Positions 1 through 10,728 are shown, counted from the first letter of the stretch. The stretch: DNA of 64,000 bases from an uncultured Bacilli bacterium (GCA_947588685.1 CANPYM010000002.1:25964-89963), one strand, 5' to 3'. Program-made: numbers and translations. The notes: generated by a model not told the origin, from the sequence alone.

Positions 1-660
1 TGGCTAATTGCTTTTTTAACCGGTCATTTTAAAGCCTTTACAATCTATACCATTATTATTATCGTTCATGAACTAGGTCATATTTTAGCAGGATTTGTTC
101 TTAAATGGCCGATTGCTAAAATAACGCTTTATCCCTTTGGGGCTTTAACGACTTTTGATCATAAATTAAATTCTTCTAATCTTGAAGAATTTTTTGTTTT
201 AATCTATGGGCCATTATTTCAAATCTTATTTTATAAGTTATATCCGACTCCATATCATTATTTTATCTTGCTATTTAATTTATTACCTATTTATCCTTTG
301 GATGGATCTAAACTGCTTTTTTTATGCTTAAATAAGGTATCCAGTTATTATACATCATATATAATTATTTACTTTGTTTCTTACCTTACCATCTTTATAT
401 TAATGATGTTAGATGTTAATTTCCTTAATTATCTAGTTTTACTTTATCTAATATATGATGTTTTTACCTATTTAAAAAAATTACCTAGTATCATGCTTAA
501 GTTTTATTTTGAACGCTATAAAGATTCACCGCATTACCCTCATCAACATCTTATTAAAGGACTTAAAATGAAGAAGATGTTTAAAGAGAAAAATAATTAT
601 TTTTTAATTAGTGATTCTTATTATTCCGAAACAGAAGTGTTGCGCCACTTTTTTAACTAA
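1..660 (+). CDS. M50 family site-2 metalloprotease (SpoIVFB/RseP-like), 5'-partial
   Basis: Frame 1 is open from base 1. HExxH motif (IVHELGHIL) and LDG motif (LLPIYPLDGSKLL) typical of M50 peptidases; hydrophobic TM segments. Confidence 0.6.
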   Translation, partial: WLIAFLTGHFKAFTIYTIIIIVHELGHILAGFVLKWPIAKITLYPFGALTTFDHKLNSSNLEEFFVLIYGPLFQILFYKLYPTPYHYFILLFNLLPIYPLDGSKLLFLCLNKVSSYYTSYIIIYFVSYLTIFILMMLDVNFLNYLVLLYLIYDVFTYLKKLPSIMLKFYFERYKDSPHYPHQHLIKGLKMKKMFKEKNNYFLISDSYYSETEVLRHFFN

Positions 661-665
661 AGTCT

Positions 666-694
666 TTGACTTATAAAAGGGCTTGTATTATAAT
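666..694 (+). promoter_or_regulatory. sigma-A type promoter TTGACT-17-TATAAT
   Basis: TTGACT at 666-671, 17-nt spacer, TATAAT at 689-694. This places the paralog-1 start codon downstream of the ATG at 695. Confidence 0.4.
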
Positions 695-709
695 ATGACC
701 AGTTTGGTG

Positions 710-1267
710 ATGTGTGTGAACATAATTATAAATTATGATTTTTGGGAACATATTTTAGATGCTAAAGAGGGTATAACTCCTTTTAAAGTAGTTCGTAACA
801 ATAAAAGGAAGTGGGCCCGCTTGCATTTTCCCGTTTATACTTTAGTTGACACTTTAATTTTAGGCTCTCTTGATAAAACGATTGTATGTTTAGCCATTCA
901 ATTTGGCGGTTTAATATCGGTAGAATATTTTGCTCAAAGATTTTATAATGATGATGCTTACGCTAAAGTAGCTCAAAAAGATTTAACGATTTTAGCCCAA
1001 AAGATGAATGATAATTATATTAAAACAAGTTATCCTCTATTATTAGATTCAGAATATTATGATAGAGAGTGGCACATCCATATTAATGAAAGTAAAATAC
1101 CGGAATTAATTGAAAAAAAGTATATTTTAGTACCAACATATGCGGGAGATGGTAACACCAAGAGTGTGTCAATGGTTCAAGAACATATTGTGGGATCAGA
1201 TAATTATGTTTTAACGTTAGGTTCACCAAAGAAAAAATTCACACCGGTATTAGCTAGGGGGGTCTAG
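710..1267 (+). CDS. hypothetical protein, tandem paralog 1 of 4 (N-term NYD[FL], C-term KYILVP.Y...VQEHI.G motif)
   Basis: ORF 683-1267. Start placed at ATG 710 after the promoter. Shares N- and C-terminal motifs with the next three ORFs. Confidence 0.5.
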   Translation: MCVNIIINYDFWEHILDAKEGITPFKVVRNNKRKWARLHFPVYTLVDTLILGSLDKTIVCLAIQFGGLISVEYFAQRFYNDDAYAKVAQKDLTILAQKMNDNYIKTSYPLLLDSEYYDREWHIHINESKIPELIEKKYILVPTYAGDGNTKSVSMVQEHIVGSDNYVLTLGSPKKKFTPVLARGV

Positions 1268-1269
1268 GT

Positions 1270-1818
1270 ATGAATATTATTGTTAATTATGATTTAATTG
1301 AGAACATTAAGAATGCTACCGAGCCTTTACATCCATTAAAACTTTTGCGATGTAAGAAAAGAAAATTATGCTTTTACTATGTTCCTTGTCTAACCATTCT
1401 TAATGGTTTAACTAATCGTCATTTTTTACTACCAAGTTTAGCCATTAGTTTAGGTCTGGTATGTGTCTATGAGACTTTTCCTGAGTTGATGGCTAGAGTA
1501 GATCCTTTTTCTTTAAAAGCGAAGTCAGATTTACATAAATTAACATCACAGTTAAGAGATAATAATATCAATACTAACTATGATATGCTTCTTGCTTCTC
1601 AAGTAGAAGCTAAGGAGTATCATCTTCAGTTAAATGAACATAAGCTTCCAACTATCTTAGAACAAAAGTATATCCTAGTTCCTTCTTATGGCTTTGATAA
1701 TACGATAAGGGATACATCAATTGTTCAGGAACACGTCATTGGAACAAGGCATTATGTCTTATCAAGTGGAAGATATAATCCTCATAAAAAACTATCTTTA
1801 GTAAGGTCAAATGCTTAA
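1270..1818 (+). CDS. hypothetical protein, tandem paralog 2 of 4
   Basis: MNIIVNYDLIENIKN...KYILVPSYGFDN...IVQEHVIGTRHYVL; 3-nt gap from paralog 1. Confidence 0.55.
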   Translation: MNIIVNYDLIENIKNATEPLHPLKLLRCKKRKLCFYYVPCLTILNGLTNRHFLLPSLAISLGLVCVYETFPELMARVDPFSLKAKSDLHKLTSQLRDNNINTNYDMLLASQVEAKEYHLQLNEHKLPTILEQKYILVPSYGFDNTIRDTSIVQEHVIGTRHYVLSSGRYNPHKKLSLVRSNA

Positions 1819-1819
1819 T

Positions 1820-1848
1820 TTGACAAAAAAATAAAAATATGATAGTAT
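1820..1848 (+). promoter_or_regulatory. promoter TTGACA-17-TAGTAT with TGn extended -10
   Basis: TTGACA at 1820-1825; TG at 1840-1841; TAGTAT at 1843-1848. Confidence 0.35.
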
Positions 1849-1850
1849 AT

Positions 1851-2040
1851 AGCTCGTTGAAAGGGAGTAGTTCTCATTCTTCGGAATGTTTTAGCCCGTC
1901 ATTTCAGCTTCGGCTCGGGTTAAAAGATATACTAGTTATCGAACGAGACTTTTACGAATAAGTAGAAGTCTCGTTTTTTATTAAACTTCTACTTATAAGT
2001 AGAAGTTTTTTCTTTTCAATCGTTATAAAACAAAGGGGGG
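1851..2040 (+). promoter_or_regulatory. structured 5' leader with two UUCG-capped hairpins and two tandem intrinsic-terminator hairpins (candidate attenuator/riboswitch)
   Basis: Hairpin CATTC-TTCG-GAATG at 1875-1888. Hairpin GCCCG..AGC-TTCG-GCT..CGGGT at 1894-1920. CGAGACTT..AAGTCTCG followed by T6 (~1946-1978). AACTTCTACTT-ATA-AAGTAGAAGTT followed by T-run (~1990-2020). CTCGTT (1853-1858) can pair with AACGAG (~1942-1947), which overlaps the 5' arm of the first terminator. Confidence 0.3.
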
Positions 2041-2046
2041 ATATCT

Positions 2047-2736
2047 ATGATAGCATTGAATTATGACTTAGTTAAAAAGATTAAGAAACACCGTCTTGCC
2101 CTAAAACTTTCTAATCGGACTAGAATCGTCAAAGAAAAAAATCAAGCTTTTTATAAAAAACTTGGTACAGTTTGCGATAACGTCTTTGATGAAATAGATG
2201 TCGGCAATATCATCATTAGTAGTAAAGTTAGCGCGATAACATCATTTGTAATTTTAGCTGGTCTTATTAATAAGATATGCTTAAAACATATGGCAAAGGA
2301 ACAAATACCCATAGTTCTTATGACAGAGGGTAAAGCCGTTTTAGCTATTTTAGGCGGTATCGTAACGATTAATCTGGGATTACCTTTTGTCGCTTTGACT
2401 AGCAATTTAGCGCAAAAAAAGGTGGAGAAAACATTAATTGCTGCTCAAGAAAAAATGCATCATCCAAGCTTCCAATTAGATTTAACGAATCCACATAGTG
2501 AAATCTTGGCAACGAAAAGAAAAATTAAATTTCAAAAAAATCATCAAAAAATAAAAACACCGATTATAGAAAAACATATTTATTGTAGAGTATTTGACTA
2601 CAAAACTTCAAAGAAAAAATATGCTGAAGTTATTCAGGAACATAAATTAGGTACAAAAAAATATAAATTAACTTTTGGTGATGTGTATGATGCATCAGAA
2701 GAATGCATAACGCATCAAAAAGTAAAAAAAATGTAA
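2047..2736 (+). CDS. hypothetical protein, tandem paralog 3 of 4
   Basis: MIALNYDLVKKIKK...VIQEHKLGTKKYKL; RBS GGGGGGA before ATG. Confidence 0.55.
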   Translation: MIALNYDLVKKIKKHRLALKLSNRTRIVKEKNQAFYKKLGTVCDNVFDEIDVGNIIISSKVSAITSFVILAGLINKICLKHMAKEQIPIVLMTEGKAVLAILGGIVTINLGLPFVALTSNLAQKKVEKTLIAAQEKMHHPSFQLDLTNPHSEILATKRKIKFQKNHQKIKTPIIEKHIYCRVFDYKTSKKKYAEVIQEHKLGTKKYKLTFGDVYDASEECITHQKVKKM

Positions 2737-2749
2737 AGGAGAGATAAAA

Positions 2750-3349
2750 ATGATAATTAATTATAATTTATTTAAAAAGGTTCTTTCAACTAATCGTGCT
2801 TTTTCCTTATCAGGTTCAATTGCATGGGAAGGTTTCGATTTTGGTGAAGGATTATTTTCAAAAGATTTTTTTGAAGCTGTTGGTGCTCAAGAGTTTATCG
2901 TTGCTTTAGGATGCGTGGTAGTTCGTTTCATAAAGGATATTCATGCTGATTTCTATAGTGTTTTCATTACGGCATGTAAAGGTTGTTGGTATGTCTTCCT
3001 TGGAAATATTGGTATTGAGCTTTTGATAGATGCCATTACTGTTATAACAGATGTATCAAGTTCAATTGCTTATTACTTTAAAAAGAAAAGCCTTCCTAAA
3101 ATAGCTAAACAATTAGAGACATTAGGATGTCATATAACGGCGAATGATTTGTATGGTGCTGAATTTAGTTGGCCGCAATTTACATTACAACGTGAGGAAG
3201 AAAAAAGAACTAAAGTTTTAGTTACACGTACTATGAGTATTAATGATATAACTTTCATTCAAGAACATATTCTCGGAAGTAGAAAGTACAAAATCACTCG
3301 TGAGGGTTATAGTGAAGTTTTACCGGATAAAGTAAAAAAACTTAGTTAA
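2750..3349 (+). CDS. hypothetical protein, tandem paralog 4 of 4
   Basis: MIINYNLFKKV...FIQEHILGSRKYKI; RBS AAGGAGAG before ATG. Confidence 0.55.
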   Translation: MIINYNLFKKVLSTNRAFSLSGSIAWEGFDFGEGLFSKDFFEAVGAQEFIVALGCVVVRFIKDIHADFYSVFITACKGCWYVFLGNIGIELLIDAITVITDVSSSIAYYFKKKSLPKIAKQLETLGCHITANDLYGAEFSWPQFTLQREEEKRTKVLVTRTMSINDITFIQEHILGSRKYKITREGYSEVLPDKVKKLS

Positions 3350-3367: not shown

Positions 3368-3492
3368 TTGACAAACCAAGGCTCGTATGTTAAAATGTAT
3401 TACTGTGTAGGACCTCATTCTACAACCGCACAGAACAGGTTTAAAACGTAAAGTACCTTAATGGCGAGTCTTAGATTATAAAGGAGGATATT
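3368..3492 (+). promoter_or_regulatory. promoter (TTGACA-17-TAAAAT) plus structured rplU 5' leader (L21-leader-like)
   Basis: TTGACA at 3368-3373, TAAAAT at 3391-3396. ~90-nt leader with CTGTG...CACAG pairing before RBS AAGGAGG. Confidence 0.4.
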
Positions 3493-3789
3493 ATGAAAGC
3501 TGTTATTGAAACAGGTGGAAAACAATACTACGTTGAAGAAGGATCTATTCTTTATGTTGAAAAGCTTGACGCTGAAGCTGGTAAAGAAGTTGTTTTTGAT
3601 AAGGTATTGATGCTAGATGGTAAAGCTGGTAACCCTTATATCAAAGGCGCTAAAGTTACGGCTGAAGTATTAAAGCATGGTAAAGCAAAAAAAGTTATCG
3701 TTTATAAATATAAACAAAAGAAGAATTATCATCGTACACAAGGACATCGTCAACCATACACCAAAGTTGAAATTAAGAAGATTAAGTAA
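3493..3789 (+). CDS. rplU: 50S ribosomal protein L21
   Basis: [25 protein letters not shown]... is the canonical L21 sequence. Confidence 0.95.
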
Positions 3790-3794
3790 TTAGT

Positions 3795-4100
3795 ATGATA
3801 AAAGTAGATGTTAAAAAGAAAGATGATGTAGTAAATTACATTAAGATATCAGGGCATTCAGAATATGCGGAAGCTGGTTTTGATATCGTTTGTGCCTCAG
3901 TATCTTCAATAGCGATTACGACAGTTAATGCTTTAGTTAGTATTAATGAGGACTGTCTTGTTTATAGTGAAGGTGAGGGCTTGTTAGAGATAGGTATTTT
4001 AATTCATGATGAAGTTATTGATAAATTAGTCACGAATATGTTAAATCTATTTAAAAACTTATCTCTAGATTATAAAGAATATATAAAACTTAATTATTAA
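3795..4100 (+). CDS. prp: ribosomal-processing cysteine protease Prp (YsxB family)
   Basis: Conserved position between rplU and rpmA. ~100 aa with GHSEYA...DIVCASVS motif. Confidence 0.85.
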
Positions 4101-4114
4101 GGGAGGTGCTCAGG

Positions 4115-4402
4115 ATGAAATTGATGAGATTGAATATCCAATTATTTGCCCACAAAAAAGGTCAAGGTTCAACTAAAAATGGACGTGACTCAATATCTAA
4201 AAGATTAGGAGCAAAAGCTGCTGATGGTGAACATGTATCTGGCGGTTCTATTTTATATCGTCAAAGAGGAACAAAGATTCATCCAGGTGTTAACGTAGGT
4301 ATTGGTTCTGATGATACTTTATACGCTAAAATTAGCGGATATGTAAAATTTGAACGTTTAGGAAAAGATAAAAAACAAGTAAGTATTTATCCTGAAGTAT
4401 AA
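4115..4402 (+). CDS. rpmA: 50S ribosomal protein L27 with cleavable N-terminal extension
   Basis: [11 protein letters not shown]|[15 protein letters not shown]... RBS GGGAGG at 4101-4106. The ORF track begins at GTG 4106; ATG 4115 is preferred. Confidence 0.93.
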
Positions 4403-4427
4403 GACTGATTAATCAGTCTTTTTTTTG
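4403..4427 (+). terminator. rho-independent terminator
   Basis: AGACTGATT-AATCAGTCT hairpin followed by T8. Confidence 0.7.
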
Positions 4428-4442: not shown

Positions 4443-5405
4443 TTAGCTAACTTTTCCTTTTAATACTTTACAAATAGTTTCAATACATTTTTGCTTTTGG
4501 GATAATCTTGGATGTACATAAAGATTTAAGGTTATATCAACGCTAGCATGACCCAATAATTCACTTACGGTTTTATAATCCGTTCCTGCGCTGATACAGT
4601 TAGTTGCAAAAGTATGACGAAGTGTATGAAACTTGAAATGATCTAGACCGATAAAATCAATTAATTTAGAAAAATAGCGACTATAAGAACGGGGTTCGAT
4701 AGGTTTAAGTTTACCAGATATTAGATAGCTATGAAGATTACTTGGTACATATTCTTTTAAAATATTTAAGATATCTTTACTAAGAGGAATATCGCGGTTG
4801 GCATTAATTGTTTTAGGCGAGGTGATGACTAATTTTGATAATGATCTATCTTCATCTTTAATATATATTCGCTGAATTGTTTTATTGATTGATATCGTTC
4901 CTTTTTTAAAATCGACATCTTCCCATTTCAAGGCACATACTTCGCCAATGCGAAGCCCTAAATACAATGATAATAAAATGCCAAGATTGCGATAATTCAT
5001 ATTATCAAGTAAATAATTAGTTAGAGTTACTTGTTCATCATAAGATAATACATATAAACGATTCGCCTGTTTCTTGTTAGGATAGGCGAATGTTAAATCG
5101 ATATAAGAAATGTATTTTTCACTCATCGCTTTTTTAAGGCTACTTTTAATAATGTTGGCAATATCTTTGATGGTCTTTAACGCTAACCCTGTCTTTTTAT
5201 TATCATCGGCTAAAGTTAGTAAAAAATCTTGAATTATTTTATGGGTAATATCTTCCAAATAATATTTTCCTAACATTGGAATAATATGGTTGAAAATATG
5301 GTTTGAGTAATTAGCATAGGTTGATTCTTTGACATAATTTTTCTTATCTTTAAGCCATTCACATATCCAGTTTTGGTAAAGTATTCTTTTTTTAAATATA
5401 ATCAT
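4443..5405 (-). CDS. tyrosine-type site-specific recombinase/integrase
   Basis: C-terminal HTLRHTFATNCISAGTD...LGHASVDITLNLYVHP (R..HxxR..Y catalytic region). Start moved to ATG 5405 (MIIFKK), preceded by AAAGGAGGA. Confidence 0.85.
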   Translation of the reverse strand: MIIFKKRILYQNWICEWLKDKKNYVKESTYANYSNHIFNHIIPMLGKYYLEDITHKIIQDFLLTLADDNKKTGLALKTIKDIANIIKSSLKKAMSEKYISYIDLTFAYPNKKQANRLYVLSYDEQVTLTNYLLDNMNYRNLGILLSLYLGLRIGEVCALKWEDVDFKKGTISINKTIQRIYIKDEDRSLSKLVITSPKTINANRDIPLSKDILNILKEYVPSNLHSYLISGKLKPIEPRSYSRYFSKLIDFIGLDHFKFHTLRHTFATNCISAGTDYKTVSELLGHASVDITLNLYVHPRLSQKQKCIETICKVLKGKVS

Positions 5406-5547
5406 ATTTCCTCCTTTCAAGGAATTTATTATATAAGAAGATTTAAAAGATTGGCGAGAGGAAAAAATTATGACATTTTTTTACAATTTACTTGTTTGCC
5501 AAATTAGAATATGTTAATATAATAATGTATAAGAAAGGAGTAAGATA

Positions 5548-8500
5548 ATGAAGAGATTATTTCGAAGTCTATTAGCTTTAGCGTTGATATTTGGTTTATA
5601 TGTACCACAAGTTTTAGCTTTCCCTCCTTTATTTAATGAACCAATTAGTATTTTAGCGGAAGCTGATAGTTTGCTAAGTACATCTTTAGAACAACCTTCA
5701 TTCGTTGGAACAGGTAACTTGGAACTTGATTTAAAGTTTAGTTTACCAATTAAAAATGTTGCTAATCCTAATATTAAAGTAACTCTTAAAGATAGTTCAA
5801 ATGCGTCTTTTACTATCAATCTAAATGATTATCCAACGATGACACGGGATAATTATACTTTAGGTGATCAAAAGGGCGAGTTTTCTATTCGTAAGATGGA
5901 AGTTGTTACTAAAGAAGACGGCAATATAAGCTATGAAGACGTTAAAAATGGCGTTGATAGTAGCGATGTTAAGTATTATGCGATGACCATTTATGGTTTG
6001 CGCCAAGGAACTTATAGTGTAACTTTATCTGGTAATGGTTATAAAGATTACACGGTTACTGGCATTAAACTAGATGATTACGCTAAACGTGTTACCATGT
6101 CAAATGATCGGGGATTATTTGAAGTGGGGGATGTCAATGGTGATAACGCTGTCGATGAAAAAGATATCGATGGTATTATTGCGCATATCGGTAGTAAAGA
6201 TGCCGCAGATTTAAATAAGTATGATTTAGATCGTGATGGCGAGATTCAAATTAACGATATGGCGATGGCAGCTTCTAGTATCAATGGCGAAGTTGAAAAA
6301 GTATCGATTGAAAATACGATGGCTATTATCAGTGCTGATAGCTTTAGCATTGATGAATCATCAACTTCTATCGATGGCGATATAGCTGATTTATTCACGC
6401 CAGATGGAAGTGTCGGAGTTCACCCAAGTGATACCGAAGCCGAAATATCTGAGGAAAATCCGGCTGTCATTTCCCTTGATATGAAAAAGCCTGTTGAAAT
6501 GGGTGAGATTAGAATTGAGACAGGACACGATAATGTGCCTGAAGAAATGACTGTTATCGTTTTAGATGAAAACGATAAAGAACACGAGTTTAAAGTTGCA
6601 AAACAACAAGTAGAAGCGATAGCGCATAAGTTTACGGATAAGAGTAGCGAAGGTACGATTGTTGTTGACTTAGAAGGTCAAATAGCTGTTAAAAAGGTAA
6701 CAATTAAAATCACGAAATCATCAGGTAAAAACTTAGCGGAAATCGCTGAAGTGGAATTCTTAAACAATGTTAAAGAAGATGTGGCTCCACCTGAAATAAA
6801 TATTCCAAGTGGCTTAAAAGCTAACTTAGGTAGTGAACAAGTAACCCTTACTTGGAATGGTATTCCAAACGTTACGGGATATGAAGTATTATTCCAAACT
6901 TTAGATACTAGTGGTAATGTCACAAAGAATGAAATCTTACAGACAACCTACACGAATTATACAATTGAAGATTTGAAAAATTACAAAGATTATCGCGCTG
7001 CTGTAAGAGGTGTTAATGGCGATTGGAAGGGTGCCTATAGTGCTGAAATAACTTTCCAACCCGAGGCTAGTAGAAAACCTCCAGCACCCGATATGGTTAA
7101 TGTAACACCAACTTTTGCCGGCTTAGATATTAGTTGGAAAGATATGAAAGATACCTTATCCTATAATATCTATTACCGAGCTTTAGGTGCTGAAGAGTTT
7201 GAAGAAATAAGAGAATACAAAGGAACAAGTTATAAACTACGTAACTTACTTCCATCAACGGCTTATGAAGTTTATATTTCTGGTAATAACCCAAATGGTG
7301 AAGGAGCTCGCTCATTAAAAGCTAGTGGCACGACCCTTGCTGAAGGCGCTGCTATTACCCCTAAATATAAATTAATTAATAAGTCTAATGGTGGCGATAT
7401 AACTAGTCATATTAAAGAAGTTGTATCAAGTCTAGGTACGATGTCTAACGGCGATAATACCGCTTTAGTTGATGATGATTTCCATACTTATTGGGAACAC
7501 AAAGATTGGCAAGTAAATGCAAGCGCTAACTATTCTTTTGGAGCACCAATAATTGTTCTAGATCAAGAATATACAATGGACCGTTTTGCTTTAACTATAC
7601 CTGATTCTTACACATTTAGTTATAAGGGTGGTTCTTATGATCCAACTAGTAGAGATTATAACGATGTTAAAGTCTTCTACTGGAGTGGTGATGATGTAAG
7701 ATCAACTCAAAATAGTATAGTGGTTCATGGTAAGCTAGAACTAAAAAAGGATAAGAATAATCGTTCTTATTATGTTTTAAAACTTCAAGAACCAATTAAA
7801 GCTAATGCTGTTCAATTTGGTCTTACTGTTGCTGGTAATACTAAATTAATTCAAATTAGTGAAGTAAAACTATATGAATATGATTCTATTGCTGACGAAG
7901 TTAATGCTTTATTCACGGATGATTTGCATTTAGTTTTAGCTGATGGTGTTAATGAAGCTCGTCTTAAAGCGTTAGAAGAACGTCTTAATACAGTTGATAA
8001 AGAAAGTGGTGAGTATCACCCAGATAAGGATGCTATTCAAGCTGATATTGACTATGCAAGACGTATCTTAAATGATGAAGATTTAAGTAAAGAAATTATT
8101 ACGGTTAACCAAAATATAACCGCTAAAAAACATACTGGCTTTAGTCAACTTAGTGAGTTACAACCATTAGGTATTGTTGCTCGCCCTGGTGAGACGATTA
8201 CCATTTATATGGGAACTGATACGAATGTACATCCACAAGTTGTCTTTACACAGTTCTATGCCGAAGCTGGTGGATGGAGTGTCACTAAAGGAAACCTTAA
8301 TAATGGCGCTAATGTTATTGAAGTACCAAAAGTAAACTCTATGGATGTTGATAAGGGTGGCGCTGTTTATATTAAGTATCCTAATTCAGCACCAACTAAA
8401 GGAACGATTAAGATTAGAGTTAGTGGTGGCGAAAGAATACCAATGCTAGATTTATATAGTAATCTATCTGATGAAGTTGAATCTAAGGCTATTATTAGTT

Positions 8501-10728
8501 CTTATCTAACAGATTTAAATAATTATGTTCAAAAGATTCGGGCAACCGATGGTTTTGATGAAAATCTTAGTGTTATTAACTCAACAGAAATAGGAACTAA
8601 GAATGCGTTATTCTCTGTTCCAGCTACTAAAGTATACGATAGTATTGTAAGTGGTATTGAAGGAGACACAACTGCTCAAATTAATCGTGTTTATAATTCG
8701 TTATTAGCGTTTGAAGAAATGATGACGATTTTCTATAATCATAAAGGTTTATCTTTAACGCCAGAAGAAAGTGTTGATATGGCCCCAGCATCAAGAATTA
8801 ACATTCGGGCAATGCGGATGTTTGATGGCGCATTTATGTATGCATCTGGGGATCACATCGGTATCGGTCAGGCATCAGTGCCTGGTTTAATGCAAGGTAT
8901 ACCAAATCAAGGTACGGGTGCTGATATGACAACAACCGGTTACTTTGGTTGGGGTATCAGCCATGAGATTGGTCACCAAATCAATCAAGGTAATTTAGCT
9001 CATGCTGAAGTTACTAACAATGTTTTTGCTTTACTTGCGCAAACAAGTGATGATAAAACCGCTCCTCGTATCGCTGATCGAATGGACCGCATTTATCAGA
9101 AAGTAACATCTAATACTTTGGGTAAAGGAACAGATGTCTTTGTTACTTTAGCAATGTATTGGCAATTACATTTAGCTTATGATGATGCTTATACTTTCAG
9201 TGATACAAACTCTATCTTTGCTAAAATAAATAAAGAGAGTAGAAGGGTAAATCAAGATGAAACATTAAAGAGTATGAGTAAAGATGAACTTCTTATTGCT
9301 CTTGCTAGTAAGGCATCTGGTTATGACCTTAGAGAATACTATCGTCATTGGGGACTTGCCTCAACAGAAAAAGTTGATAATTATATTGCTGGTCTAAATC
9401 TAAAGACAGAAGAAAGACCAATCTGGTATATCAATGATAATGCTAGAAGATATCGAATGAATGGTGGCGCTAAAACACCAGAGACGACATCAATTGTGGC
9501 TTTCTTATCTGAAGAAGACCCACAAAATAAACGTTATACTTTAACTTTCAATCCAATTGATGGCTCTGATAGTCGTTATATCTTGGGTTATGAAATTAAA
9601 CGTAATGGTGTACCAATTATGTTTACGACGGAAACGTCATTTACAGATGTTATTGGTGCTTTAAATAATCAAGCTCTTACATATGAAGTAACAGCTTATG
9701 ATATGTATTTAAAACCAACTAATACCGTTAAGTTAAAAGAAGTTAAAGTAAGACATGATGGAAGCATTAATAAAGAAGGCTTTACTATCGAGTCTAACTT
9801 CAAACATAATGGTGAAGTTGTAAGCTATGAAGATGAAAGTTTTGATAGCAAGAAATTAAGTGTTAATAATCTATTAGATGGAAAAAATAGTACCTTCATT
9901 GGTGATACGAGAATTTCTGATAAAGAAGTTGAAACAGTTGATAAGGGCGATGCTAGTATCATTATTGATTTAAATAGTGCAATGTCCGTATCAGGTATTG
10001 CTTATACGGCTGGTACTGATGAAAATGGCCTTTTAGCTAACACTATTTCTAAGTATGCTGTTTATGTAAGTAAAGATCGTAATACTTGGGATAAAGTAAA
10101 AGAAGGTACATTTGATTTTGAAAAATCTAAAGATTATAAAAATACCATTTATTTTGACAAAATAGGTACAACTGGTGGTAACCAATTATGGACTTATAAT
10201 GATATATCCTATATTAAGATTGTATCTGTCGGAAATACAAATGGTATAAGTGGTGCGGAAATAGATGTTATTGCTCCTCCAGGCGATAATGTTGAATTAG
10301 ATAATGTTGGTAAATTATCCAAAGATTATAAATATCAAGGCGAAGATGGAAGTGAGAAAACAATCGAAGCTGGCTCAATTGTCTTCACAGGTAATTATCG
10401 TGGTAATCCAACTTTCAACGTTATGTTGATGGTTGATGCTACCAATGCTGAAAAAGTCTTTGATGGTGAAAACTTCTTATTTGCTAAATTAACAGACGAT
10501 GGTACTGTAAGTGAAACTTATGATGGTACTTGGTTCTATGTTGTTAGTAAAGAAACTTATGAAGATATGTGTAAGGGTAGTGTTAGAGCCGAATTATATC
10601 GGGTAAATGATCCACATACTAATGATGGTGAACGCCTTACAAGTACATCACTTTCCCTAAGTGATTTAGCAGCATATGAAGAACTTCCAGATTTAAATAT
10701 TGTTGACTCTACTAAGGAGGTTTCATAG
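5548..10728 (+). CDS. large secreted multidomain protein: type-I dockerin + FN3 repeats + M60-like (enhancin-like) zinc metallopeptidase + discoidin/CBM32-like C-terminus
   Basis: Signal peptide MKRLFRSLLALALIFGLYVPQVLA. Duplicated Ca-loop DVNGDNAVDEKD / DLDRDGEIQIND (~6127-6275). HEIGHQINQGNLAHAE = HExxHx10E (8961-8975). Confidence 0.8.
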   Translation: MKRLFRSLLALALIFGLYVPQVLAFPPLFNEPISILAEADSLLSTSLEQPSFVGTGNLELDLKFSLPIKNVANPNIKVTLKDSSNASFTINLNDYPTMTRDNYTLGDQKGEFSIRKMEVVTKEDGNISYEDVKNGVDSSDVKYYAMTIYGLRQGTYSVTLSGNGYKDYTVTGIKLDDYAKRVTMSNDRGLFEVGDVNGDNAVDEKDIDGIIAHIGSKDAADLNKYDLDRDGEIQINDMAMAASSINGEVEKVSIENTMAIISADSFSIDESSTSIDGDIADLFTPDGSVGVHPSDTEAEISEENPAVISLDMKKPVEMGEIRIETGHDNVPEEMTVIVLDENDKEHEFKVAKQQVEAIAHKFTDKSSEGTIVVDLEGQIAVKKVTIKITKSSGKNLAEIAEVEFLNNVKEDVAPPEINIPSGLKANLGSEQVTLTWNGIPNVTGYEVLFQTLDTSGNVTKNEILQTTYTNYTIEDLKNYKDYRAAVRGVNGDWKGAYSAEITFQPEASRKPPAPDMVNVTPTFAGLDISWKDMKDTLSYNIYYRALGAEEFEEIREYKGTSYKLRNLLPSTAYEVYISGNNPNGEGARSLKASGTTLAEGAAITPKYKLINKSNGGDITSHIKEVVSSLGTMSNGDNTALVDDDFHTYWEHKDWQVNASANYSFGAPIIVLDQEYTMDRFALTIPDSYTFSYKGGSYDPTSRDYNDVKVFYWSGDDVRSTQNSIVVHGKLELKKDKNNRSYYVLKLQEPIKANAVQFGLTVAGNTKLIQISEVKLYEYDSIADEVNALFTDDLHLVLADGVNEARLKALEERLNTVDKESGEYHPDKDAIQADIDYARRILNDEDLSKEIITVNQNITAKKHTGFSQLSELQPLGIVARPGETITIYMGTDTNVHPQVVFTQFYAEAGGWSVTKGNLNNGANVIEVPKVNSMDVDKGGAVYIKYPNSAPTKGTIKIRVSGGERIPMLDLYSNLSDEVESKAIISSYLTDLNNYVQKIRATDGFDENLSVINSTEIGTKNALFSVPATKVYDSIVSGIEGDTTAQINRVYNSLLAFEEMMTIFYNHKGLSLTPEESVDMAPASRINIRAMRMFDGAFMYASGDHIGIGQASVPGLMQGIPNQGTGADMTTTGYFGWGISHEIGHQINQGNLAHAEVTNNVFALLAQTSDDKTAPRIADRMDRIYQKVTSNTLGKGTDVFVTLAMYWQLHLAYDDAYTFSDTNSIFAKINKESRRVNQDETLKSMSKDELLIALASKASGYDLREYYRHWGLASTEKVDNYIAGLNLKTEERPIWYINDNARRYRMNGGAKTPETTSIVAFLSEEDPQNKRYTLTFNPIDGSDSRYILGYEIKRNGVPIMFTTETSFTDVIGALNNQALTYEVTAYDMYLKPTNTVKLKEVKVRHDGSINKEGFTIESNFKHNGEVVSYEDESFDSKKLSVNNLLDGKNSTFIGDTRISDKEVETVDKGDASIIIDLNSAMSVSGIAYTAGTDENGLLANTISKYAVYVSKDRNTWDKVKEGTFDFEKSKDYKNTIYFDKIGTTGGNQLWTYNDISYIKIVSVGNTNGISGAEIDVIAPPGDNVELDNVGKLSKDYKYQGEDGSEKTIEAGSIVFTGNYRGNPTFNVMLMVDATNAEKVFDGENFLFAKLTDDGTVSETYDGTWFYVVSKETYEDMCKGSVRAELYRVNDPHTNDGERLTSTSLSLSDLAAYEELPDLNIVDSTKEVS

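Follow-up and report, generated by a model that had tools for sequence, protein, structure and literature searches.

The stretch of DNA studied here, which we refer to as the window, comprises 64,000 nucleotides from an uncultured Bacilli bacterium (GCA_947588685.1, CANPYM010000002.1:25964-89963) and had a guanine plus cytosine (GC) content of about 30% throughout. It contained a tandem array of 4 genes on the plus strand, here called P1 to P4, which encode members of an unclassified protein family. The P1 gene was located at positions 716-1267, within an open reading frame (ORF) that opens at a TTG codon at position 683, and was followed by P2 at positions 1270-1818. The encoded proteins, of 183 amino acids (counted from a GTG codon at position 716) and 182 amino acids, respectively, were canonical members of the family. 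The P3 (2047-2736) and P4 (2750-3349) genes coded for divergent members of 229 and 199 amino acids, the former with additional hydrophobic helices and the latter with a deletion in the region of the KYILVPTY strand. The 4 consecutive same-strand ORFs described in the original prediction, which was made from the sequence of the window, were all recovered.

The P1 and P2 proteins were 37% identical over 180 residues (E = 3.7e-41), and the P2 protein also matched P3 (E = 2.5e-7) and P4 (E = 6.6e-7). The E-values of the remaining pairwise comparisons were 7e-4 for P1 and P3, 1e-3 for P1 and P4, and 2e-4 for P3 and P4. Because all of these values were obtained in BLASTP with composition-based statistics, we attribute the similarities to homology rather than to the AT-rich composition of the genes, and the 4 proteins are, judging from these comparisons, true paralogs. 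Compositional artefacts, considered as a possible explanation when the array was first described, do not account for the significance of the matches. A four-way alignment confirmed the N-terminal motif (I/L/V)NY(D/N)(L/F) and the C-terminal motif QEH..G(S/T)..Y in all 4 proteins. However, the KYILVP(T/S)Y motif, which had likewise been listed as shared, was limited to P1 and P2, and was replaced by KHIYCRVF in P3 and by the deletion in P4.

As predicted, the genes formed 2 tightly spaced pairs, with gaps of 2 nucleotides between P1 and P2 and 13 nucleotides between P3 and P4, and with a Shine-Dalgarno sequence in each. The Shine-Dalgarno sequence of P2, AGGGGGG, was located within the 3' end of P1, and that of P4, AAGGAGAG, at the junction between P3 and P4. 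From this arrangement, P2 is predicted to be translationally coupled to P1, and P4 to P3.

A sigma-A-type promoter for the P1-P2 pair, TTGACT-17-TATAAT, was predicted at positions 666-694 on the plus strand, with 11 of 12 consensus positions matched, and its near-consensus sequence suggests strong expression. Since this promoter overlaps position 683, and since the ortholog in a related locus has an ATG at the homologous codon (L003; loci from other genomes are labelled L001 to L032), P1 most likely starts at the GTG codon at position 716 (MNIIINYDF...), rather than at the TTG codon. The promoter pattern TTGAC(T/A)-17-TA(T/A/G)AAT was conserved before the first family gene in L003, L005 and L027, where the family gene follows genes for M23 and M50 peptidases as described below. 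This conservation argues for vegetative sigma-A expression that is independent of the M23-M50 unit. It was also noted that a stretch of 17 nucleotides containing the ribosome-binding site and start codon of P1, at positions 703-719 (TTTGGTGATGTGTGTGA), recurs with 94% identity at positions 2674-2690 within the 3' end of P3 (TTTGGTGATGTGTATGA). The repeat may be the leftover of an older gene junction, or it may be due to chance.

Family membership, copy number and selection

An exhaustive HMMER search of 1.84 billion representatives, with a profile based on the paralogs, retrieved 353 proteins at E <= 1e-3, each of which represents a cluster at 50% identity, and 246 proteins at E <= 1e-10. Nearly all family proteins were 175 to 200 amino acids long, and the profile matched them from end to end. 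A word-indexed homolog search recovered only 3 to 7 clusters, even with a profile of 145 sequences, and a scan of metagenomes with a narrow pattern yielded 8 contigs, most of which were short. The score against the family profile was 216 bits for P1, a value to be read with the inclusion of the window's own sequences in the profile in mind, 64 bits (E = 4e-19) for P3 and 58 bits (E = 2e-17) for P4.

Neither the 4 paralogs nor the 145 relatives gave anything but noise in Pfam, and the same was true of the 4 paralogs in NCBIfam, PADLOC and PHROGs. A profile search of PDB sequences produced 0 hits at E <= 1, no matches to the family were found in viral contigs, plasmids or phage records, and the names given in the source databases did not go beyond 'hypothetical protein [Bacilli bacterium]'. 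Along with the Foldseek results presented below, these searches agree with the earlier statement that the family is not assignable to a known domain. Both the family and its fold are unclassified, and where we call them new we mean unclassified and not a demonstrated new mechanism.

The consensus of the N-terminal part of the family is MKIxINYDLIxKIKNANEPF..KIIRN.K, after which follows a hydrophobic segment of about 45 residues with low charge. The consensus of the C-terminal part reads D.YK..A...LK.LV..L..LNI.TDY.LLL.SE.Y.K.Y.L.LNE.K.P.I.E.KYILVPTY..NG.IK.TSILQEHV.GSK.YVLSLGSP.K. In the numbering of P2, H155 was invariant across the family, and D8, L88, L91, T102, K133, P138, Q153, E154, G158, Y162 and L164 were conserved in at least 90% of the members. 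The source records were metagenome-assembled genomes obtained from the gut of rabbits, from the rumen and from other gut material, and were assigned to uncultured Bacilli, Erysipelotrichaceae or 'Clostridium sp.'. The GC content of the loci that carry the family ranged from 22% to 34%. The family is confined to uncultured low-GC gut Bacilli.

Most genomes contained a single copy of the gene (L001, L005-L012, L027, L029-L031). Within the clade in which the family gene is found in synteny with the M50 gene, a single copy was identified in L005 and L027, 3 copies in L003 (P1, P2 and P4) and 4 copies in the window. In L003 (4127-4946), the leader that precedes P3 in the window, to which we return below, was kept and was followed by P4 only, leading straight into the promoter of the rplU gene. 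In L032 (1-1020), the leader was followed by an ortholog of P3 with 73% identity, which also led straight into the rplU promoter, and P4 was missing. The variation in copy number for which the original prediction proposed to search was in this way found in related genomes, with 1, 3 or 4 copies as well as P3-only and P4-only variants. Furthermore, an independent tandem triple of canonical members, of 196, 196 and 180 amino acids, was identified in L025 (7974-9755) and also in L026, located after the genes for def and SpoIID and convergent with a mraZ-rsmH-ftsL-pbp cluster. Because the L025 triple is independent, we conclude that tandem amplification recurs in the family.

In a neighbour-joining tree, which is distance-based and carries no support values, P1 and P2 were placed among the single copies of the M50-syntenic clade, P3 and P4 formed a group with long branches, and the copies from L025 belonged to another clade. 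The ancestral state is shown to be one stand-alone gene located behind its own near-consensus sigma-A-type promoter. The array in the window is a lineage-specific tandem expansion, and the arrays in the window (4 copies), L003 (3 copies) and L025 (3 copies) have arisen independently. At the DNA level, the paralogs in the window had only remnants of about 20 nucleotides in common, for which reason the duplications are considered to be old, in line with the ancient tandem duplication and divergence that had been proposed. P3 and P4 also have common ends (ATGAT..AATTA at the 5' end and KVKK(L/M)(S) at the 3' end), which would allow unequal recombination to remove one copy cleanly.

The ratios of nonsynonymous to synonymous substitution rates (dN/dS) were 0.21 for P1, 0.18 for P2 and 0.34 for P4 in comparisons with the L003 orthologs, and 0.19 for P3 in a comparison with L032. 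Orthologous comparisons of the genes for M50 and L21 gave values of 0.20 and 0.12, respectively. These estimates indicate that all 4 copies are maintained by purifying selection.

Predicted structure and the membrane question

The AlphaFold2 model of P2 had a predicted local distance difference test (pLDDT) score of 82 and a predicted template modelling (pTM) score of 0.71. Its N-terminal part consisted of a strand at residues 3-5 and helices at residues 9-17, 22-28, 30-48, 53-75, 79-97 and 104-108, and its C-terminal part of 4 long antiparallel strands at residues 111-121, 128-140, 146-156 and 162-166. The elements followed each other in the same order in the model of P3 (pLDDT 78, pTM 0.63), in which the helical section was longer. 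The conserved C-terminal part thereby combines a helix with the beta-meander that carries the Q-E-H..G(S/T)..Y motif and its invariant histidine. Whether the conserved N- and C-terminal blocks belong to the same fold, as had been asked in the original prediction, was answered in the affirmative by the models of both P2 and P3. According to the DSSP output, the N-terminal residues form a strand and all other strands are located in the C-terminal sheet, from which we infer that the 2 blocks build one domain.

Of the 43 residues of the central segment, a median of 4 were charged, as compared to 28% of the residues elsewhere. Conservation was lowest in this segment, and a stretch rich in lysine and arginine (K..RN.K) was located just before the helical hairpin that it forms in the model. 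The maximum hydropathy over 19 residues had a median of 1.62 in the family, with a range of 0.88-2.58 and a 10th percentile of 1.23, and was 1.8-2.1 in P3 and P4. In view of the low charge, the preceding lysine and arginine residues and the hydropathy, the likeliest reading of the sequence is that the central segment forms a membrane hairpin with both ends in the cytoplasm, although this may not apply to every member.

Foldseek searches against PDB and BFVD gave no significant matches (best E-values 0.079, 0.24 and 0.027). The weak matches that recurred were to NTF2-like proteins (3hx8, the CaMKII hub and a designed NTF2), cystatin-like proteins (Affimers) and Rad52-like alpha+beta rolls. As in the NTF2- and cystatin-like rolls, the helices in the models give way to a beta-meander that is long, curved and antiparallel. 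It could be argued that the proteins are soluble and cytoplasmic, with the hairpin buried at the core of an alpha+beta cone of the NTF2 or cystatin type. The residues D8, K133, Q153-E154-H155 and Y162 would then form a catalytic or small-molecule pocket, the specificity of which would differ between the paralogs. The repeated appearance of these 2 folds among the weak matches speaks for such a protein, as does the pTM score of P2, which suggests a single compact body. Furthermore, the hydropathy is borderline in many members (10th percentile 1.23, minimum 0.88), and an invariant histidine beside a near-invariant glutamate typically marks an active site or a metal-binding site.

However, all of the structural matches were insignificant. 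The NTF2-like matches, with E >= 0.08 and template modelling (TM) scores <= 0.28, do not place the family among the NTF2-like proteins, and the cystatin-like matches, to Affimer chains of about 90 amino acids, reached TM scores of up to about 0.4. For both folds, the root-mean-square deviation was 5-7 Å, and neither has a sequence signal to the family or a counterpart of the N-terminal strand insertion or the hydrophobic hairpin. The central segment varies more than the rest of the protein and yet stays uniformly poor in charge, as would be expected of an anchor that faces lipid and not of a conserved core. In P3 and P4 the segment is of transmembrane grade, and the lysine- and arginine-rich stretch before the hairpin resembles positive-inside topology signals. 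We consider a soluble protein unlikely for these reasons, and prefer the membrane hairpin.

The leader between P2 and P3

At positions 1820-1848 on the plus strand, we predicted a promoter-like site, TTGACA-17-TGaTAGTAT, in which the -10 element is extended and which would serve the leader and the P3-P4 pair. Both hexamers were conserved in L003 and L032, and the predicted +1 position was a purine, which is a G in the window and an A in L003. It was followed by a leader of about 190 nucleotides (1856-2046, plus strand), identified from folding, terminator calls and conservation. The leader contained an invariant 5' element, GAAAGGGAGUAGUUCUC, hairpin A with a UUCG loop (1875-1888), hairpin B (1889-1925), and 2 predicted terminators, T1 with a stem of 15 base pairs (1941-1976) and T2 with a stem of 11 base pairs (1983-2008), each of which is followed by a U-run. 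The Shine-Dalgarno sequence of P3, AAAGGGGGG, was located at about 2034-2042. The minimum free energy (MFE) of the leader was -63 kcal/mol, with a z-score of -6 relative to shuffled sequences. The long structured leader that the original prediction had placed before the second gene pair is hence supported by its folding energy, by 2 terminator-like hairpins and by conservation in 3 lineages.

The 2 terminators were a tandem repeat of each other over 32 nucleotides, and the 3' arm of T1 was complementary to the 5' arm of T2 over 22 nucleotides (86%). The energies were -20.7 kcal/mol for T1, -11.2 kcal/mol for T2 and -12.4 kcal/mol for the alternative hairpin formed by the 3' arm of T1 and the 5' arm of T2. 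In the MFE structure of the nascent RNA up to position 1957, the UGAAAG and GUUC elements at the 5' end were paired with the 5' arm of T1 (GAAC...CUUUUA), so that hairpins A, B and C are enclosed in a four-way junction. No promoter-like site was predicted between T2 and the start of P3 (2009-2046), and, judging from the sequence, transcription of P3 and P4 must therefore pass both terminators.

The leader was 89% identical to that in L003 over positions 1856-2020 (91% over the aligned region 1800-2060), and 82% identical to that in L032 over positions 1856-2020 with gaps counted. The flanking genes showed nucleotide identities of only 68% to 79% (68% to 75% in the comparison with L003), with synonymous differences of 0.44-0.65. 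The leader was accordingly more conserved than the flanking coding DNA, to a degree similar to that of a bona fide L21 leader. It was retained before P4 only in L003, before P3 only in L032 and before both genes in the window. The best-supported reading of these 3 sequences is that P3 and P4 can each be lost, and that the leader is retained along with at least one of them.

The substitutions in the leader were located in loops or preserved the pairing, which was kept in 99% of the cells. Hairpin B contained a change from G·U to A·U and another from C·G to U·G, and a compensatory change from A·U to G·C in its inner stem. In T1, a change from G to A in the 5' arm was accompanied by a deletion of 2-3 nucleotides in the 3' arm that restored a shorter stem.

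Searches of Rfam 15 did not assign the leader to any family, even at E <= 10, and returned noise only, such as miRNA models at 24 bits with thresholds of 45-74. The leader contained no tRNA-like element, and no further copy of it was detected with nhmmer in the window or in loci L001-L031. Two leader-peptide models, one with an ORF of 34 codons that ends in the T1 loop and one with an ORF of 15 codons that starts at AUU, were rejected, as their frames are destroyed by an indel of 1 nucleotide in L003. A helix, P1, using GCUCGUU (1852-1858) was also rejected, as it is broken by the G1856A substitution in L003 and is located at or upstream of the likely start of transcription.

The predicted elements, which are a promoter at 1820-1848, T1 and T2 with U-runs and no promoter-like site downstream, have the generic anatomy of an intrinsic-terminator attenuator. 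In its promoter, multi-hairpin junction, U-run terminators and pairings upstream of ORFs that are predicted to be mutually exclusive, the leader resembles the riboswitches, T-boxes and protein-controlled attenuators of Firmicutes. Unlike these, it has 2 tandem homologous terminators, no Rfam match and no recognisable site for a ligand, a tRNA or a protein, and it encodes no conserved leader peptide that could be recognised. The pairings suggest that it may act as an attenuator of the ON type. The 5' end of the leader (UGAAAG and GUUC) would pair with the 5' arm of T1 and close the four-way junction. If the junction were stabilised, T1 would be blocked, its freed 3' arm would sequester the 5' arm of T2, and both terminators would fail.

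The same anatomy, with a promoter, about 120-150 nucleotides and strong terminators, is also that of a gene for a small RNA, and T1 and T2 necessarily end the P1-P2 transcripts too. The leader could thus be an independent small RNA gene or merely a double terminator of the P1-P2 operon, with P3 and P4 as weakly expressed, partly redundant duplicates that are heading for loss. The finding that each of the 2 genes is individually dispensable, since L003 lacks P3 and L032 lacks P4, fits with this explanation. However, dN/dS values of 0.19 for P3 and 0.34 for P4 indicate purifying selection, the Shine-Dalgarno sequences of both genes are strong, and at least one of the 2 was always located directly 3' of the leader. 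Their expression must also cross the leader, since no promoter-like site was predicted between T2 and P3, and the complementarity between the 3' arm of T1 and the 5' arm of T2 (22 nucleotides, 86%) is needless for plain termination. We regard a small RNA gene or double terminator as improbable.

Gene neighbourhoods and proposed role

The array was preceded by the 3' part of a gene for a SpoIVFB-like M50 intramembrane metalloprotease (1-660, plus strand), which runs off the start of the window. The fragment was open from the first base, contained the motifs HELGH and LPIYPLDG, and matched Pfam PF02163 with E = 9e-6. Upstream of the M50 orthologs in L003, L005 and L027 were an M23 gene, pgsA and a gene for a RodZ-like protein. 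The downstream boundary of the array is marked by a predicted promoter of rplU (3368-3396, plus strand; 11 of 12 matches), followed by an L21 leader, RF00559 (3414-3481, plus strand; 50.6 bits, above the gathering score of 36), which immediately precedes rplU. The rplU promoter and L21 leader were conserved in L003, L005, L023 and L027. The ORFs of the rplU-prp (ysxB)-rpmA operon were located at 3493-4402 on the plus strand, with a terminator at 4401-4420, and the Pfam domains Ribosomal_L21p, Peptidase_Prp and Ribosomal_L27 were recorded on identical genes in L021 and L023. Otherwise, the first 21 kb of the window consisted of chromosomal housekeeping DNA, with genes for a giant M60-type peptidase, fpg, nrdD/G, TspO, fmt and Mur ligases.

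Between rpmA and the giant M60 gene, at positions 4443-5420 on the minus strand, we identified a gene for a tyrosine recombinase (XerC/XerD/integron-integrase-like), which was also present in L023. It looks like an insertion in the lineage of the window, because the giant gene directly follows rpmA in L005 and L027. An invertible promoter driven by the recombinase was considered, and no convincing inverted repeats were found. The giant gene (5548-10728, plus strand) encoded a protein of 1726 amino acids with a hydrophobic N-terminal segment, FN3, Peptidase_M60 (enhancin-like, HEIGH motif) and F5/8 type C domains. The same position was occupied by genes for large proteins in L005 (1718 amino acids) and L027 (1587 amino acids, with no Pfam hit on record). 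The M60 protein may be a protease that degrades mucin or other glycoproteins.

The family occurred in at least 12 distinct neighbourhoods, only one of which included an M50 gene, namely the M23-M50-gene-rplU order in the window, L003, L005 and L027/28. Several of the others contained genes for translation or DNA repair. The family gene was located upstream of rpsJ in L007 and L008 (7935-8555), and at 8001-8546 in L010, in the order rplQ-x-gene-pcrA-ligA. It was also found before a UvrD-like helicase gene in L017 (40-402), so that PcrA/UvrD-type helicase genes follow it twice, between frr and mutS in L009, next to mfd in L012 and L014, and next to leuS in L031. This adjacency to translation and repair genes may reflect only the highly expressed regions of the core genome. 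The remaining contexts were def and 3 gene copies beside the dcw cluster (L025/26), a macro gene (L030), hsp20-gene-GDPD (L016), a recombinase-rich region (L006), the vicinity of sigK (L011), and TelA-gene-AAA in L001 and L029, where the AAA ATPase is SpoVK-like.

In Bacillus subtilis, the spoIVF operon is located upstream of rplU-prp-rpmA, and the family gene, which follows M23-M50 and precedes rplU-prp-rpmA, occupies a similar position. No literature relevant to the spoIVFB/rplU context was found. The position raises the question of whether the family could be an accessory (inhibitor, scaffold or substrate) of a SpoIVFA/SpoIVFB-like M23-M50 pair, analogous to BofA in the pro-sigma-K checkpoint, with paralogs that tune it. 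Consistent with such a role, the M23-M50-family gene-rplU order was kept in the window, L003, L005 and L027. Sporulation genes were found in several family loci (Spo0A in L029, SpoIID in L025, and SigK at a distance of 1.3 kb in L011), and BofA is likewise a small protein with 2 hydrophobic helices. However, the family protein, at about double the size of BofA, contains a conserved alpha+beta domain, which is absent from BofA. In Pfam and NCBIfam, neither the 4 paralogs nor the 145 members matched BofA, SpoIVFA or any family of anti-sigma proteins, including substrates of the RsiW/RseA type, at the sequence or profile level, and no sigma factor gene was adjacent to the array in the window. Most members are not beside an M50 gene, as at least 11 other contexts lack one (rpsJ, rplQ/pcrA, frr/mutS, mfd, def, leuS, TelA/SpoVK-like and hsp20 among them). 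Finally, in the M50-syntenic clade the family gene has its own conserved promoter of sigma-A consensus, not of the sigma-E or sigma-K type, and is not part of the M23-M50 unit. A partnership with the M50 protease is in our view quite improbable, and the M50-linked signalling set suggested originally is not supported.

The original prediction had also suggested a polymorphic toxin/immunity-like set, and this or another conflict system (defence or addiction) was considered. As in the immunity-gene arrays of LXG/type VII secretion (T7SSb) and contact-dependent inhibition (CDI) orphan modules, the array consists of tandem, diverged small paralogs, and its copy number differs between close relatives. 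In L001, the family gene was moreover located just downstream of 4 tandem paralogs of another unannotated family (4533-7936), with the N-terminus M(S/G)DGWTG(I/L)NI and no match in Pfam or NCBIfam, one of which had a C-terminal extension of about 170 amino acids. These GDGWTG genes are located between TelA and the family gene and are not adjacent to it gene-to-gene. They were inserted beside a resident family gene, because the syntenic locus L029 has the order TelA-family gene-AAA without them. A gene for an EssC-like protein with FHA and FtsK domains was located about 5 kb downstream in L029, and the GDGWTG array is a candidate T7SS-type polymorphic effector array.

Unlike the immunity-gene arrays, the array in the window had no toxin-like gene within it or beside it, its neighbours being the genes for M50, rplU-prp-rpmA, the tyrosine recombinase, the M60 peptidase, fpg and nrdDG. 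The family is mostly single-copy and found in a stable chromosomal context of housekeeping genes, it evolves under purifying selection (dN/dS 0.18-0.34) in a manner similar to M50, and it had no matches in PADLOC, PHROGs, viral contigs, plasmids or phage records. The toxin/immunity reading thus fails on every point on which it could be examined, and we consider it extremely unlikely.

In the explanation that we favour, albeit with no more than moderate confidence, the array is a lineage-specific expansion that encodes membrane-anchored, coupled partners, with P3 and P4 under attenuation and no tie to a toxin or to M50. The hydrophobic hairpin would anchor the cytoplasmic domain to the membrane, with both termini inside the cell. 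Organisms with a single copy would form homo-oligomers. In the window, the members of the coupled pairs would assemble into hetero-oligomers with a function of the housekeeping type in vegetative cells, and such assembly is the most economical guess from their tandem coupling. P1 and P2 would be the canonical, co-translated subunits, made constitutively from a strong promoter, and P3 and P4 the divergent, more hydrophobic and condition-specific alternative subunits under the attenuation control of the leader.

Several observations weigh against this explanation. In about a quarter of the family the maximum hydropathy is below 1.44, and the pTM score of 0.71 would also be compatible with a compact soluble protein in which the helical hairpin is buried. 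Oligomerisation is suggested by the tandem coupling alone, and no partner gene was conserved across the 12 or more neighbourhoods. The promoters and terminators come from consensus prediction alone. The leader was found in 3 closely related lineages only, no sensor, ligand or leader peptide was recognised in it, and the strands of the proposed anti-terminator are invariant. There is one compensatory pair among the 3 sequences, and 180 of 500 shuffles do equally well; since the pairing does not exceed that of the shuffles, the leader structure is consistent with the data but not proven.

A more far-reaching possibility has 2 linked parts. The family would be a new class of membrane-anchored cytoplasmic module with a new fold, and its invariant Q-E-H site would carry out chemistry or sensing that the whole clade of uncultured, spore-forming gut Bacilli requires in growth. 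The leader, at about 160 nucleotides, would be a new class of riboswitch or attenuator, in which a four-way-junction sensor disables both terminators and switches in P3 and P4 as more hydrophobic alternative subunits. We consider it doubtful that both parts apply jointly.

The clade that carries the family is known from metagenomes only, and its phylogenetic range is narrow. If the present description is correct, a well-defined family, with a consensus, about 350 clusters and a confident model without a structural neighbour, would be added to the unannotated proteins of gut Firmicutes. The tempting yet unsupported annotation as a toxin/immunity or M50-signalling set is removed by the analysis. 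The leader represents a compact candidate for a new attenuation element that can be assayed in a heterologous Firmicute, and the variants with 1, 3 or 4 copies, with P3 only and with P4 only constitute a natural experiment for functional testing.

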